This document shows, piece by piece, positions 7,561-21,530 of a stretch of DNA of 64,000 nt. Origin of the DNA: an uncultured Hyphomicrobiales bacterium (lineage in GTDB: Bacteria > Pseudomonadota > Alphaproteobacteria > Reyranellales > JAQSWP01). The number at the start of each line of letters is the position of its first letter. The first letter of the stretch is position 1. The notes below the pieces were generated by a model. The model searched no databases and was not told where the DNA came from. It saw only the letters and a program-made list of their open reading frames with translations. The translations under genes were made by a program, and so were the position numbers. The DNA lies in contig CAYLYK010000002.1 in NCBI GenBank assembly GCA_964388115.1, positions 47,255 through 111,254 on the forward strand, given 5' to 3'.

Positions 7561-8955
7561 TTACGACCTAAACTGCGCTGCCGATTCCCCGGCGATGCGA
7601 CCGAGCACGATCGCGGTTAGCAATCCGTTGCCCGACAGATAACCATCGACCGTCGAACCCGACAGGCCGCAAGCGGCTCCACCGCCAGCGAAAAGATTCG
7701 GTACGGCTCCGCCATCGGCACGCAATACGCGGGCCTGCGTATCTATCAGCAGTCCGCCCTGGGTGTGAAATAACGCGCCGGTTACCTTGACTGCGTAGTA
7801 CGGCGGCTGCAGTTGCGCCTTGCCGGTGAAGTTGCGCCCGAAGCGATCCTGCCCCCTGTCCAACGCCAGATCGCCTACGTGCTCGAGCGTGGCAGCGAGA
7901 GAATCCGGCGGCAGGCCGCACAGGCGGGCTAGCTCCGCAATCGTATCGGCATGGCGCATGGCACCTGCGGCGCAGGCGTTGCGATAGTCTTCGAATGTCA
8001 TGCCCAGCGCATGCAGGCGCTGGTCGTAGATGTTCCATGCCAGACCATCGGGTTGCGACAGCACAGACACCGCCTGCTCGGAATAGCCGCTGTGCTCGTT
8101 GGAAAACCGTTCGCCTTTGGCGTTGACCTGAAATCCGCCTTCCATCATCAGAGCCCAGGTGATCAACGCCTCCTGCGGCACGGCGACGGAACCGTGACCC
8201 TGATAAGCGCCCATGTGTTTGACGGCCGCACCCAGCGCCTGGCCCCAGCGCACGGCATCGCCCTGGTTGCCGATATGGCCGAAATATTTGGCGCCTGCCA
8301 TTTCGGGGATGAACTGCGCCACCATGGCTTTGTTGCCGCCGAAGCCGCTGCAGGCAAGAATCAACGCCGCGCAGCCGATGCTTTCCGAGCCGCCATCCGG
8401 CCGTTCGAGGCGCAGTCCGCGCACCGCGCTTCTCTCGTCGGCGACAAGATTGGTTACGTGGGCATCGGTAACGATGTCGATACCGACGGCTTCAATCGCT
8501 GCCAGTAAAGCTCCCATCAAGGCCGCCCCAGTGCGGGCGGGGACAGCATGCATGCGCGCCAGACCATGGCCAGGGTAGAGAAAGCCCTCGACCAGTTCGA
8601 AAGGCACGTTGTGCCTGCTTGCAAGCCAATCGATCGTCGGACCGGAGGCGAGACACACGGCATCGACCAGCGCCTGATCGTTCCGGCCTTTTGCCTTGTG
8701 CTGGATGTCCGACGCCATCAAGGCCGGCGTATCGGCTACGCCGCGCGCCCGCTGCATGGAGGTGCCGCTGGCAGGCACCATGCCCGAAGACAGCGCCGTC
8801 GACCCGCTCGGCATGGCATCGCGTTCGAACACCACCACCTGCGCTCCGGCATCATGCGCCGCCAATGCCGCCACCAAACCACAGGCGCCGCCGCCGACCA
8901 CCGCAATATCGACGCTGGCATCGAATCTGGTCGTGGCGGCCGGCAGGATGCTCAT
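7561..8955 (-). CDS. FAD-dependent oxidoreductase (fumarate reductase/TcuA/KstD flavoprotein family)
   Basis: GGGACG Rossmann motif, SGSTALSSG, ILACSGFGGN, TQGGL and YLSGNGLLTAIVLGRIAG. Start at the ATGA overlap with the upstream gene. Confidence 0.85.
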   Translation of the reverse strand: MSILPAATTRFDASVDIAVVGGGACGLVAALAAHDAGAQVVVFERDAMPSGSTALSSGMVPASGTSMQRARGVADTPALMASDIQHKAKGRNDQALVDAVCLASGPTIDWLASRHNVPFELVEGFLYPGHGLARMHAVPARTGAALMGALLAAIEAVGIDIVTDAHVTNLVADERSAVRGLRLERPDGGSESIGCAALILACSGFGGNKAMVAQFIPEMAGAKYFGHIGNQGDAVRWGQALGAAVKHMGAYQGHGSVAVPQEALITWALMMEGGFQVNAKGERFSNEHSGYSEQAVSVLSQPDGLAWNIYDQRLHALGMTFEDYRNACAAGAMRHADTIAELARLCGLPPDSLAATLEHVGDLALDRGQDRFGRNFTGKAQLQPPYYAVKVTGALFHTQGGLLIDTQARVLRADGGAVPNLFAGGGAACGLSGSTVDGYLSGNGLLTAIVLGRIAGESAAQFRS

Positions 8956-9563
8956 TGCGCGTCGAGCTTCCCGAGCATGGCGGCGCAATCGCTGATCTCG
9001 ACTATGCTCCGCAGCGAGGCGATGGTGTCGTTATGCACCTGATCGGAGAACGCTGCACAGCCGTCCTGCAGCACGATTACCTTGTAGTCGCGCACATGCG
9101 CATCGCGCACTGTGGAGGCGACGCCGCCATTGGTAACGATGCCGGCGAACACCAGCGTGTCGATGCCGGCGCGCTGCAGCACGAATTCCATCCGGCTCAT
9201 GTAGAAGGCCGAATAGGCAACCTTCTCGATGGAGAAATCGGCAGGTTGCAACTCGTCGACCAGCGCATGGCCCCAACCGCCGGGGACGAAATCGCCCTTG
9301 CCGAGGAAGGGCCGCAGCTTCTTCAGATGCGGGCCGATCAGCGGCTCGCCCGCCCTGCCCGGCACCAGCGTGAAATGCGTCGACAGCACGAACCCGCCGC
9401 GATGGCGGAAAGCGTCGGCAACCGGCTTCAGGCGCGCTGGCAAGGCAGCGATGGCGGAGGCCGCTGCACCGCCCCGCGCATAGGCGCCGCGCGGATGCAG
9501 GAAATCGTTCTGCAGGTCGACCAGGACCAGGGCCGACTTGCGTGGATCGAAACTGCCGCTCAT
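8952..9563 (-). CDS. Isochorismatase-like hydrolase family protein lacking the catalytic Cys
   Basis: LVDLQNDF (Asp), IEKVAYSAF (Lys), and GIVTNGGVASTVRDA where amidases have TNxCVxST. Confidence 0.85.
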   Translation of the reverse strand: MSGSFDPRKSALVLVDLQNDFLHPRGAYARGGAAASAIAALPARLKPVADAFRHRGGFVLSTHFTLVPGRAGEPLIGPHLKKLRPFLGKGDFVPGGWGHALVDELQPADFSIEKVAYSAFYMSRMEFVLQRAGIDTLVFAGIVTNGGVASTVRDAHVRDYKVIVLQDGCAAFSDQVHNDTIASLRSIVEISDCAAMLGKLDAQ

Positions 9564-20659: not shown

Positions 20660-20714
20660 GTCTTCAATCTCCCTGTCGCTCCGATGGAATTTGCTTGCGG
20701 TCGTGGCCCGGAGC

Positions 20715-21530
20715 TCAGGCGGCCGGCGACCAGCTGTTGCGGTTACGCTCCTGAACGCGGTCGAGCTTCATGCGGTACTGGTAGCGGTCGGGCCGATAGA
20801 GGCCGACGATGTACTCCACCGGCCGTGAGTTCTGGTCGAGCACGATGCGCGTGATGCGCAGCAGCGGCGATGCAACCTCGACTTCAAGTGCGGCAGCCAT
20901 TTGGGGATCGGCAAGCGTGGCCGAGATCACTTGCTCGGCCGAGCCGATGCGCACGCCCGAGCGTTCGAGAAGGGTTAGCAGTGGCCGATTGGCCAGATCG
21001 CGCCGCGAATAGGTGCGACCGATCTTTTCCGGCACGTAAGTGGTAAGGTACGAAAACGGCTTGCCTTCGATGGACCGACTGCGGATGGCGTGCTGCACGA
21101 TAGCGCCGGGCGACAGCTGCAGCGCACGGGCGACATCGGGCGAGGCAGGTGCATATTCGAAGGCCAGAAGCGATACTTCCGTCTTCAGCCCCATCTCGAT
21201 GAGGTTTTCCAGGAGACCTTCGACGCCGGCACGCACCGGCTCGACCTGCGGCCGGCCGGCAACGCGCGTGCCGCGACCGCGTTCGCGCACCACGAGACCG
21301 TCGGCGGCCAACTCGTCGAGCGCCCGCCTTGCAGTGATGCGCGAAACGCCGAACTGGCGAACCACCTCCTGCTCACCGGGAACGATGTCGTTGGCGGCGA
21401 ACACGCCGTCCCTGATCTTGTCGCGCAGCACGAGATAAATCTGATGATAAAGCGGCGTCGGCAATCGCTCGTCGATTGGCGGCAACACGCGCGCCGCCCT
21501 GCCATTGTGAGATTTGCCGCGTGATGCCAT
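20715..21530 (-). CDS. GntR family regulator, HutC/UTRA subfamily
   Basis: PLYHQI, GEQEVVRQFGVSRITARRAL wHTH, RGRGT, and a C-terminal UTRA ending LYRPDRYQY. Confidence 0.9.
   Translation of the reverse strand: MASRGKSHNGRAARVLPPIDERLPTPLYHQIYLVLRDKIRDGVFAANDIVPGEQEVVRQFGVSRITARRALDELAADGLVVRERGRGTRVAGRPQVEPVRAGVEGLLENLIEMGLKTEVSLLAFEYAPASPDVARALQLSPGAIVQHAIRSRSIEGKPFSYLTTYVPEKIGRTYSRRDLANRPLLTLLERSGVRIGSAEQVISATLADPQMAAALEVEVASPLLRITRIVLDQNSRPVEYIVGLYRPDRYQYRMKLDRVQERNRNSWSPAA

Follow-up and report, generated by a model that had tools for sequence, protein, structure and literature searches.

Which compound does a bacterium degrade with an operon that combines a Liv-type importer, a hydantoinase-like enzyme, an aconitase-family hydratase, a carbon–carbon lyase, and a flavoenzyme? 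The question is raised by a 64,000-nucleotide stretch of DNA (the window) from contig CAYLYK010000002.1 of an uncultured Hyphomicrobiales bacterium, where 13 open reading frames (ORFs), all on the minus strand, fill positions 7561–21530 according to the ORF and translation analysis. An earlier reading of the sequence (hereafter, the original prediction) regarded them as a complete operon for a cyclic amide. The locus is a genuine catabolic operon that is conserved widely and has never been characterised. The original prediction is partly supported: its general logic was right, but two enzyme roles and the completeness need revision. We tentatively propose, with somewhat less than even confidence, that the operon is substrate-inducible and serves a carboxylate-bearing cyclic imide or amide, most likely one with a 3,4-disubstituted succinimide/maleimide-type ring.

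Gene Order and Conservation of the Operon

The start codons were picked to fit the stops of the neighboring genes before the junctions were measured. From livH to the gene of the flavin adenine dinucleotide (FAD) enzyme, the junctions are, in order, −4, −4, −8, +1, −4, −4, −4, −4, −4, and −4 nt, so the 13 minus-strand genes and, from livH on, the 4–8-nt overlaps or 1-nt gap described originally are confirmed by the ORF coordinates; the genes from livH through the flavoenzyme gene are translationally coupled. The gap between gntR and the gene of the solute-binding protein and that between the latter and livH are both 55 nt long. A comparison of the 13 proteins with Pfam and NCBIfam bore out every family named earlier, including that of the lyase with its KRCGH motif at residues 115–119; none of the operon's enzymes gets to an NCBIfam equivalog cut-off.

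A scan of one genome per species with an alignment of the lyase gave at least 598 confirmed lyase-containing loci, of which 80 (from Alpha-, Beta-, and Gammaproteobacteria) were examined by mapping the window and accessory proteins onto them; most of the 80 carry the cluster. Homologs of the lyase number in thousands, those at 65–70% identity being mostly from Alphaproteobacteria, and the identical protein occurs with the same neighbors on short metagenome contigs. In the well-flanked subset (54 loci with 8 kb or more of flanking sequence to either side), the companions of the lyase are an aconitase-family pair (46 loci), a ring-opening module (49), and the flavoenzyme (40). Two Ferrovibrio assemblies and a complete alphaproteobacterial chromosome assembled from a metagenome share all 13 genes and their order with the window, at 52–82% protein identity. 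This recurrence in Ferrovibrio and other Alphaproteobacteria means that the arrangement is not due to chance. One further genome has only the succession lyase–hyuB–hyuA–isochorismatase–FAD.

The whole cluster also resides in a cultured bacterium, Azospirillum oryzae KACC 14407 (locus L089, plasmid NZ_CP054616.1, 438578–452998). Other cultured bacteria identified as carriers are Chelatococcus asaccharovorans DSM 6462, Microvirga subterranea DSM 14364, Rhodoplanes serenus DSM 18633, Salinarimonas ramus, Sulfitobacter sediminilitoris, Parapusillimonas granuli LMG 24012, and, with a type B cluster (see below), Marinobacter sp. F3R08. A haloarchaeal variant was found on plasmid pNVE414 of Natrinema versiforme (L090, 370741–381416); it comprises genes for the flavoenzyme (43% identity), an isochorismatase with Cys, an amidohydrolase, LeuCD, the lyase, and PrpD-family and NTF2-like proteins, together with CoA-transferases, an HMG-CoA-lyase-like gene, and a citrate:proton symporter nearby. 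As judged by its gene content, this variant shows a spread of the module across domains, presumably with a partly CoA-dependent lower route.

Could the locus be a mere juxtaposition of 5-oxoprolinase and leucine-biosynthetic LeuCD beside a methylisocitrate lyase? Public annotation seems to say so, as it calls the bacterial-type paralogs leuC/leuD with the Gene Ontology (GO) term for leucine biosynthesis (in the Azospirillum cluster, the annotation pipeline PGAP assigns leuC/leuD and “leucine biosynthetic process”), and the bacterial-type LeuC paralog does pass the LeuC equivalog cut-off (641 vs. 560 bits). Still, such a chance mix is hardly credible, given that the LeuC of the window scores 259 against 560 bits, its lyase 285 against 354 (prpB), and HyuAB lies far under every equivalog, and that the genes are translationally coupled and are found together in different phyla with exchanged ring-openers and transporters. 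A housekeeping combination of 5-oxoprolinase and leucine biosynthesis is, thus, effectively refuted by the equivalog scores and synteny, and the earlier view of a dedicated catabolic operon stands.

The Ring-Opening Position

In the window, the ring-opening position is occupied by HyuB (hydantoinase B/oxoprolinase subunit, 576 aa, 11635–13365; Pfam Hydantoinase_B, 1.4e-168, 562 bits) and HyuA (hydantoinase A/oxoprolinase ATP-binding subunit, 692 aa, 9560–11638), the latter matching Hydant_A_N, Hydantoinase_A, and Hydant_A_C; both genes are on the minus strand. HyuA scores 524 bits with caprolactamase alpha (CapA) and HyuB 323 bits with caprolactamase beta (CapB), the cut-off being 1000 in both cases, whereas 141–300 bits were obtained with the subunits of acetophenone carboxylase (Apc; cut-offs 1250–1500). 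Assignments as caprolactamase, acetophenone carboxylase, or 5-oxoprolinase equivalogs were rejected on these grounds. Among solved structures, the best relatives of HyuA are N-methylhydantoinase (405 bits) and 6yra, deposited as 5-oxoprolinase (369 bits), with acetone/acetophenone carboxylases scoring lower.

Related loci fill this position in different ways. The module of type A is that of the window, i.e., hyuB–hyuA and the isochorismatase-fold protein. Type B, found in Marinobacter (L079) and in L039, consists of an isochorismatase with Cys and two paralogous PuuE-like “polysaccharide deacetylase” (CE4) proteins; L032 (Parapusillimonas) and L057 possess the PuuE pair without the isochorismatase. 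Type C (L018, L021, L069, L071, L083, and L087) relies on a 496-aa enzyme of the allantoinase/dihydropyrimidinase/dihydroorotase family, without the isochorismatase, and in L021 this enzyme is preceded by a TctC receptor. In L039, the exchange leaves the exact gene order of the window (leuC, leuD, lyase, ..., FAD) in place, with another ring-opening module. Since three unrelated cyclic-amidohydrolase families fill one position, there is strong evidence from gene content that, at this position, the ring of a cyclic amide, imide, or ureide is opened by hydrolysis. A solved-structure search with the PuuE-like protein returned the PuuE allantoinase family alone, by which imide and ureide are not separable. 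With the substrate identified, the clusters would illustrate how nature has put cyclic amidohydrolases of three families (one using ATP, two doing without it) to the same task.

This exchange also bears on the idea that HyuAB could be an ATP-dependent carboxylase akin to acetone/acetophenone carboxylase, building the di- or tricarboxylate for LeuCD and the lyase. Acetophenone and acetone carboxylase subunits are indeed detectable homologs (300 and 239 bits), but HyuAB is nearer to N-methylhydantoinase and the caprolactamase family, no gamma subunit is present, and the hydrolases replacing HyuAB elsewhere (PuuE-like, allantoinase-like) are incapable of carboxylation. We regard a carboxylase as very improbable.

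An Isochorismatase Fold without the Nucleophile

The gene after hyuA (8952–9563, minus strand) encodes a 203-aa protein of the isochorismatase fold (PF00857, 1.7e-36, 126 bits against a cut-off of 27). When aligned with RutB, it displays Gly147 in place of the catalytic Cys (TNGGVAST vs. TNVCVEST), with D16 and K114 present. All three residues are invariant in 61 sequences (the window protein and 60 orthologs from related loci), whereas the isochorismatases of type B and haloarchaeal clusters have kept the Cys. Because the nucleophilic Cys is replaced by an invariant Gly, catalysis of the RutB, CSHase, NicF, or BiuH type is impossible, and an ordinary cysteine amidase was rejected. Its sequence points either to a Cys-independent chemistry or to aid to a substrate bringing its own nucleophile. 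Judging from this residue, the name “cysteine hydrolase”, which public annotation gives to the Azospirillum ortholog despite the Gly, is misleading; together with the leuC/leuD labels in the same cluster, it is probably a misannotation, so public annotation is partly wrong for this cluster.

The D/K/G pattern would fit true isochorismatases of the EntB/PhzD type (Asp as the general acid, Lys, and no Cys), although similarity to PhzD/EntB is weak (36–41 bits), and no chorismate-pathway genes lie near the operon. True isochorismatases hydrolyze vinyl ethers. By analogy, the protein could hydrolyze an enamine or vinylogous amide, a role that we consider rather improbable, and just as improbable is the scheme to which it belongs: a cyclic enamide/lactam or ureide (e.g., a reduced pyridone-carboxylate such as 6-oxo-tetrahydronicotinate, or a carboxyalkyl-hydantoin) would be the substrate, the flavoenzyme would act as an ene-reductase, and HyuAB would cleave the lactam. 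Apart from the Cys-to-Gly replacement, which makes the protein resemble the vinyl-ether hydrolases PhzD and EntB found among its matches, this scheme agrees with the reductases (Fcc3, urocanate reductase) being the nearest solved relatives of the flavoenzyme, with a Pro1 tautomerase–NTF2 fusion of 28 related loci that could handle enol/keto products, and with the ring-openers themselves: in each of the three families, the characterised relatives with the highest scores hydrolyze the hydantoin ring (allantoinases, N-methylhydantoinase), because of which a cyclic ureide has to be counted among the possible substrates. Glutarate-related neighbor genes (see below) would fit it, too, as the Azorhizobium nicotinate route reportedly ends in glutarate. 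On the other hand, LeuCD and the lyase, the most constant members of the cluster, are left without a role, for which reason the nicotinate (6-oxo-tetrahydronicotinate) route was ranked low; there is no hydroxylase to make the pyridone and no carbamoylase of the usual kinds, and type B clusters use a normal Cys amidase.

A Tyr-Type Flavoenzyme

The last gene of the operon (7561–8955, minus strand) encodes a stand-alone FAD_binding_2 flavoenzyme of 464 aa without a signal peptide. Its top family is the flavocytochrome c subfamily (251 bits vs. a cut-off of 285), and its best solved relatives are the Shewanella Fcc3 fumarate reductase and urocanate reductase. In an alignment with Fcc3, the identity of which was put by eye at about 30%, H365 and T377 are conserved (as H254 and T266), while R402, which is the proton donor in Fcc3, is replaced by Y291, H504 by F396 (followed by H397), R544 by Y439, E378 by W267, and R381 by M270. 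As the Arg/His/Arg set became Tyr/Phe/Tyr, the enzyme has lost the site at which fumarate or succinate is held by its distal carboxylate; there is no heme domain either, and the assignment as an Fcc3-type fumarate reductase was rejected. Across 52 flavoenzyme sequences, Y291, Y439, and H254 are invariant and H397 is found in 51; the GYS, FH, and GY motifs are seen in the haloarchaeal ortholog as well. The top-ranked solved entry, 1jrz, differs from the other Fcc3 entries, with their Arg or Lys, in having Tyr at the position aligned with 402, and it ranks first because the window flavoenzyme natively possesses this Tyr.

The original prediction took this protein for a TcuA-type desaturase. This was not upheld: it scores 160 bits with the TcuA model NF006130 (cut-off 369) and 118 with TIGR02485 (cut-off 373), no TcuB-like partner was detected among the 13 operon genes with Pfam and NCBIfam, and the Fcc3 fumarate-site residues R402/H504/R544 are changed to Y/F/Y. 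Weaker matches (104–156 bits against cut-offs of 789–1000) were obtained with 3-ketosteroid delta-1-dehydrogenase (KstD) and the 4-oxocyclohexanecarboxylate desaturases ChcC1/ChcC2. KstD relies on Tyr residues for desaturation alpha,beta to a ring carbonyl.

The distribution of the flavoenzyme is telling. It is present in 39 of the 49 well-flanked loci with a ring-opener and in one of the five without; the latter (L018) is the sole locus scored in this way, and its ring-opener gene matches in pieces, under the threshold. Seven of the ten ring-opener clusters lacking the flavoenzyme are of the HyuAB type, and in these seven, the operon stops after the isochorismatase gene, with no conserved substitute. 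Minimal clusters of LeuCD, lyase, HyuBA, and the isochorismatase-fold protein, devoid of the flavoenzyme, are seen in L010, L013, L035, and, on a shorter contig, L034. Two further loci (L065 and L075) harbor LeuCD, the lyase, and a TctC receptor and lack both the ring-opener and the flavoenzyme. Since the flavoenzyme is missing from about 20% of the related clusters and is not seen without a ring-opener, desaturation appears accessory and tied to the heterocycle, and the ten clusters without it contradict the original view of desaturation as the obligatory start of the lower pathway. By sequence and distribution, the flavoenzyme is probably an accessory ring desaturase, converting a saturated into an unsaturated ring.

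The same observations bear on a different order of events, in which ring opening and deamidation would come first, and the flavoenzyme would desaturate the free substituted succinate or tricarballylate in a TcuA-like manner before LeuCD and the lyase act. The gene content is compatible with this order, TcuA is among the weaker family matches of the flavoenzyme (160 bits), TctC and citrate-type transporters occur in some relatives, and the LeuD loop (see below) suggests a tricarboxylate. Nevertheless, we find the TcuA-like order unlikely: the score is far under the TcuA cut-off of 369 and a TcuB-like partner is lacking; the residues that in Fcc3/Frd grip the distal carboxylate and donate a proton to the substrate are Tyr/Phe/Tyr, invariant or nearly so; and ring-opener, LeuCD, and lyase form clusters without the flavoenzyme, which is also missing from L065 and L075, where LeuCD, the lyase, and TctC do without the ring-opener.

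The Hydratase and the Lyase

The large subunit of the hydratase (427 aa, 14776–16059, minus strand) is an aconitase-family Fe-S (de)hydratase of the archaeal LeuC/HacA type, scoring 543 bits with PRK00402 (cut-off 385) and 486 with hacA_fam (cut-off 386). The small subunit (171 aa, 14264–14779, minus strand) is of the LeuD/HacB/DmdB type, with 172 bits in TIGR02087 (LEUD_arch; cut-off 109). The subunit pair, the subfamily score, and three Cys place the enzyme in the aconitase/isopropylmalate-isomerase family (LeuCD/HacAB type); these Cys (C302, C362, and C365), located in GACT and GCGAC (GxCT and CGxC) motifs, are candidate ligands of the cluster. Biosynthetic equivalogs are not reached by either subunit (leuC 259 vs. 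560, LEU2 394 vs. 611, leud 141 vs. 246 bits), nor are those of HacA (433 vs. 550) and HacB (151 vs. 230).

The specificity loop of the small subunit, Y-M-K-Q, aligns with YLRT of the Methanocaldococcus jannaschii homoaconitase (2pkp) and contrasts with YLVY of the isopropylmalate/citramalate isomerase of the same organism (3vba). Both this loop and the sub-cut-off scores led to the rejection of a biosynthetic 3-isopropylmalate dehydratase. Work on the Methanocaldococcus homoaconitase is said to have identified R26 and T27 as the residues selecting the carboxyethyl arm; the Lys of the window protein aligns with R26, and Lys or Arg stands at this position in 12 of the 13 other archaeal-type LeuD proteins with a readable loop. 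The homoaconitase-like loop is a hint of a possible carboxyethyl-maleate intermediate. Only 12 of the 46 aconitase-family pairs in the well-flanked loci are of the archaeal type; the other 34 are a bacterial-type paralog (~36% identity), a non-orthologous replacement for the archaeal type, with the lyase kept.

The lyase (301 aa, 13362–14267, minus strand) belongs to the isocitrate-lyase (ICL)/phosphoenolpyruvate (PEP)-mutase superfamily of C–C lyases, matching Pfam PEP_mutase (1.7e-42) and ICL. At the motif level, to which the analysis of its specificity was confined, K115-R-C117-G-H119, the Mg site D80/D82, and E109/D110 are invariant in 23 homologs, and the NMVEGG motif is like that of petal death protein, where PrpB has NITEFG. 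The enzyme is about equidistant (178–190 bits) from methylisocitrate lyase, petal death protein, and 2,3-dimethylmalate lyase. It is under the cut-offs of PrpB (TIGR02317, 285 vs. 354 bits; NF008455, 241 vs. 353), and a 2-methylisocitrate lyase equivalog was discarded.

Accessory Genes in Related Loci

Relatives of the operon carry genes that the window lacks. A fusion of 4-oxalocrotonate tautomerase, with its Pro1, and a SnoaL/NTF2 domain is encoded in the 28 loci mentioned, with a stand-alone NTF2 homolog in Natrinema. Genes of the Asp/Glu/hydantoin-racemase family come as pairs in three loci and singly in two. A PrpD/MmgE-family gene directly precedes the lyase in six loci, recalling the PrpD–aconitase–PrpB trio, and is nearby in four more. 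A tblastn search of the whole 64-kb window revealed no gene for the tautomerase–NTF2 fusion, PuuE-like, racemase-like, or PrpD proteins, glutaryl-CoA dehydrogenase, or CoA-transferase. As relatives carry extra conserved genes (tautomerase–NTF2, PrpD-like, racemase-like) absent here, the operon cannot be called “complete”, as it originally was. The tautomerase–NTF2 and racemase-like proteins would fit a role in funneling double-bond isomers and epimers into one pathway.

Some neighbors bear on the fate of the product. In L014 and L029, genes for glutaryl-CoA dehydrogenase and a CoA-transferase directly follow the flavoenzyme gene; in L023, a glutaryl-CoA dehydrogenase gene is visible up to the contig end, and in L079, the dehydrogenase/CoA-transferase pair flanks TRAP (tripartite ATP-independent periplasmic) transporter genes. 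Close relatives of the dehydrogenase are named glutaryl-CoA dehydrogenase by several sources, and the best model of the CoA-transferase, by more than 200 bits, is succinate–glutarate CoA-transferase (523–535 bits, below the cut-off of 750). These neighbors are only suggestive of glutarate as a lyase product. To yield glutarate by an ICL-type cleavage, 3-(2-carboxyethyl)malate, i.e., (methyl)homoisocitrate, would be needed, which fits the homoaconitase-like loop.

The Proposed Pathway and Its Substrate

Taken together, the following sequence of events is proposed. The GntR/UTRA regulator would control transcription from its candidate operator, and the Liv-type binding-protein ATP-binding cassette (ABC) system, assigned by family, would import the ring compound. 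The flavoenzyme, supposedly KstD-like in its reliance on Tyr, would introduce a ring C=C next to the carbonyl and thereby fix the cis geometry required by the LeuCD hydratase. HyuAB would then open the ring at the expense of ATP. In the least certain step, the Asp-Lys pair of the isochorismatase-fold protein may release ammonia by acid/base or substrate-assisted catalysis, e.g., via an anhydride, as dialkylmaleamic acids do spontaneously; such acids hydrolyze through intramolecular anhydride formation. The outcome would be a cis-2,3-substituted maleate, probably a tricarboxylic acid similar to (methyl-)cis-homoaconitate, for the LeuCD-type Fe-S enzyme to hydrate. From the substituted malate, the ICL/methylisocitrate-lyase-type enzyme would release pyruvate or glyoxylate as the 2-oxo acid, along with a carboxylic acid that may be glutarate. 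We infer that no redox step belongs to the core pathway, which would run from import through the opening of the ring and the release of nitrogen to maleate hydration and lyase cleavage, and the flavoenzyme, tautomerase–NTF2, racemase-like, and PrpD-like proteins would be add-ons to it. Of the course predicted originally, from ring opening to maleate, malate, and lyase products, the link of the ring-opener with lyase and LeuCD holds across the 80 loci, whereas the role of the flavoenzyme and the completeness do not.

A five-membered carboxyalkyl cyclic imide would explain more of the features than other substrates, because it accounts for a maleate-type diacid or triacid product and for the carboxylate transporters. 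It is favored, too, because type C does without a deamidase and that of type A lacks a nucleophile, and because ATP is spent on a ring that resists hydrolysis and readily re-closes.

Several points weigh against this proposal. The substrate was assigned from chemistry and gene context, and hydantoin rings, as stated above, are the substrates of the closest characterised ring-openers. Imide hydrolysis is normally ATP-independent, type C clusters hold no deamidase at all, and we know of no precedent for a Cys-less isochorismatase fold acting as a deamidase. The flavoenzyme was compared with Fcc3 at the low identity given above and was set apart from TcuA by model scores and Fcc3 residues, not by an alignment with TcuA. 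The Natrinema LeuD has Val, and not Lys or Arg, at the specificity position, and glutaryl-CoA genes adjoin just four of the 80 loci, probably as two or three independent events.

The most attractive specific candidates for the cyclic imide are the monopyrrolic oxidation end products of tetrapyrroles (heme, bilin, chlorophyll), such as hematinic acid and dialkyl maleimides or succinimides, although this identification is a long shot; tetrapyrrole breakdown products were already named as an example in the original prediction. The operon family would then mineralize these compounds in many bacteria and in haloarchaea. The flavoenzyme (acting on succinimides), tautomerase–NTF2 (on alkylidene isomers), and racemase-like proteins (on epimers) would funnel the variants to the maleimide; HyuAB would spend ATP to open this very hydrolysis-resistant ring, and the Cys-less fold would assist a self-cleaving dialkylmaleamate. 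The homoaconitase-like LeuCD would then hydrate 2-methyl-3-(2-carboxyethyl)maleate, and the lyase would yield pyruvate and glutarate, the latter passing to glutaryl-CoA. If a tetrapyrrole-derived maleimide were indeed the substrate, the pathway would close an open end of the global turnover of chlorophyll and heme. In any case, identification of the substrate would reveal a new route for the catabolism of an N-heterocycle that is apparently common in the environment, and new activities would be defined for the nucleophile-less isochorismatase fold and the Tyr-type Fcc3-like flavoenzyme.

Comparison with Known Systems

Full-text literature searches that combined the names of the enzymes with cyclic imides, half-amides, imidase, hematinic acid, and dimethylmalate lyase turned up no description of the cluster, in line with the earlier statement that it matches no described pathway. 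The cyclic-imide pathway of Blastobacter sp. A17p-4 reportedly employs an imidase and then a half-amidase to arrive at a dicarboxylate, and the cyclic-imide steps of nicotinate catabolism in Aspergillus nidulans are said to be carried out by the imidase HxnM and the amidase HxnN. Ring opening followed by half-amide deamidation would be common to these systems and the operon, and the PuuE-like/CE4 enzymes of type B and the dihydropyrimidinase-like enzymes of type C represent families used in these steps. In the window, by contrast, the ring-opener is the ATP-dependent HyuAB, the “half-amidase” is a nucleophile-less isochorismatase fold, and the product is non-central, requiring a dedicated LeuCD hydratase and an ICL-type lyase.

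The lower part of the operon recalls the nicotinate fermentation of Eubacterium barkeri, which reportedly ends with dimethylmaleate hydratase DmdAB and 2,3-dimethylmalate lyase Dml, i.e., with a hydratase (LeuCD-type, Fe-S) and a lyase (ICL superfamily) that together handle a 2,3-disubstituted maleate/malate. The small subunit of the window falls in the NCBIfam “LeuD/DmdB family”, and the lyase resembles Dml (3fa3, 178 bits) no less than PrpB. Unlike that pathway, the operon includes no enamidase, B12 mutase, or methylitaconate isomerase, its hosts are aerobic Proteobacteria, its LeuD loop has Lys instead of a hydrophobic residue, and identity to any characterised member is low. The 2-methylcitrate cycle (PrpD, AcnB/AcnD, PrpB) likewise brings together an aconitase-family hydratase and a methylisocitrate-lyase-like enzyme, and several related clusters insert the PrpD/MmgE gene at the same place, directly before the lyase; however, the lyase is under the prpB cut-off, methylcitrate synthase is lacking, and the pair is tied to ring-opening amidohydrolases and an importer.

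With the creatinine/N-methylhydantoin pathway, the operon shares an ATP-dependent HyuAB and an isochorismatase-fold hydrolase, along with N-methylhydantoinase as the best solved relative of HyuA. Nevertheless, the N-carbamoylsarcosine amidase of that pathway uses an Asp-Lys-Cys triad, in which the Cys corresponds to Gly here; sarcosine-handling genes are lacking in the operon, and that pathway has no use for LeuCD or the lyase. The TcuABC system offers a parallel in that an aconitase-type enzyme would receive its cis-alkene tricarboxylate from an FAD_binding_2 flavoprotein, but the TcuA models are not reached (160 vs. 369 and 118 vs. 373 bits), TcuB and TcuC are missing, and the active-site residues differ. 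KstD and ChcC1/ChcC2 are, similarly to the window flavoenzyme, stand-alone FAD_binding_2 proteins, desaturating alpha,beta to a ring carbonyl; the scores are low, however, and the flavoenzyme is overall nearer to the flavocytochrome c fumarate reductase branch.

Regulation and Import

The first gene of the operon (20715–21530, minus strand) encodes a 271-aa regulator of the HutC subfamily, with an N-terminal GntR winged helix-turn-helix (Pfam GntR, 3.9e-20) and a C-terminal UTRA effector domain (3.8e-36). No NCBIfam equivalog was reached by this protein; its orthologs were found in 48 related loci. An AT-rich imperfect palindrome, GTATATTCATATAAC (plus-strand letters, 21558–21572), situated 28 bp upstream of the gntR start codon, is a candidate operator of the GntR/HutC type. 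It is the single match in the 64-kb window to the degenerate pattern GT-N(1-2)-TAT-N(1-4)-ATA-N(1-2)-AC, which was drawn from related loci. In 1.4 Mb of these loci, the pattern has nine matches, of which six fall within the gntR intergenic region or next to it (L011, L023, L044, L059, L079, and L086); a search for inverted repeats found no perfect operator.

The importer consists of a periplasmic solute-binding protein of the Liv type (Peripla_BP_6, 3e-49; 412 aa, 19421–20659) and four ABC components, namely the permeases LivH (290 aa, 18493–19365; 79% identity to a Ferrovibrio protein) and LivM (328 aa, 17510–18496; 4-nt overlap with livH) and the ATPases LivG (252 aa, 16755–17513; 4-nt overlap with livM) and LivF (233 aa, 16061–16762; 8-nt overlap with livG), all on the minus strand. 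The solute-binding protein carries a twin-arginine-like signal (RRQFV). Its best solved relatives are Leu/Ile/Val-binding proteins, at no more than 120 bits, and the solved-structure search yielded no informative relative; the LivH ortholog of Azospirillum oryzae is annotated as a branched-chain amino acid ABC permease. In other loci, the Liv-type protein is swapped for TRAP DctPQM or TctC, and the transporters of relatives (TRAP, TctC, CitMHS) are carboxylate carriers.

Genes Surrounding the Operon

The operon is flanked on both sides by unrelated genes. Upstream of it lies a gene of a MobB protein (21834–22385), and a respiratory nitrate reductase locus (22566–32795, minus strand) adjoins it, apparently with no relation to the operon; this locus includes a narK-like fused major facilitator superfamily gene (30054–32795), narG (26290–30054), narH (24755–26278), narJ (24075–24758), narI (23354–24070), and a peptidyl-prolyl isomerase gene (22566–23669). 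At the other end, a small cytochrome c gene (7072–7410, plus strand) is convergent with the operon. Beyond it, the minus strand encodes a weakly matching 2-oxoglutarate-Fe(II) oxygenase-like ORF (5935–6804) and a flavin monooxygenase-like ORF (4275–5777); these two ORFs (4275–6804) are not common to related loci, and no link to the operon was seen.

A second small catabolic unit on the plus strand (44831–49403) possibly represents a module for the uptake and hydrolysis of an amide-acid. It includes genes for the TRAP transporter protein DctP (44831–45985), an ORF assigned by place only to the DctQ position (46085–46696), DctM (46693–48039), and an adjoining amidase-signature enzyme (48042–49403), which could in principle supply half-amidase activity.

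Long antisense ORFs overlap real genes of the operon, e.g., at 9968–11272, 8619–9710, and 15863–16882 (all on the plus strand); such shadow ORFs are typical of DNA with ~64% GC. Several extra ORF families that seemed conserved in the all-against-all clustering of the loci were dropped as antisense shadow ORFs of high-GC genes. The DNA polymerase I gene polA is located at 54869–57838 on the plus strand, and its presence indicates that the window is chromosomal DNA and not a plasmid or island. Almost all occurrences of the source DNA, with no RNA runs among them, are in bioreactor metagenomes.

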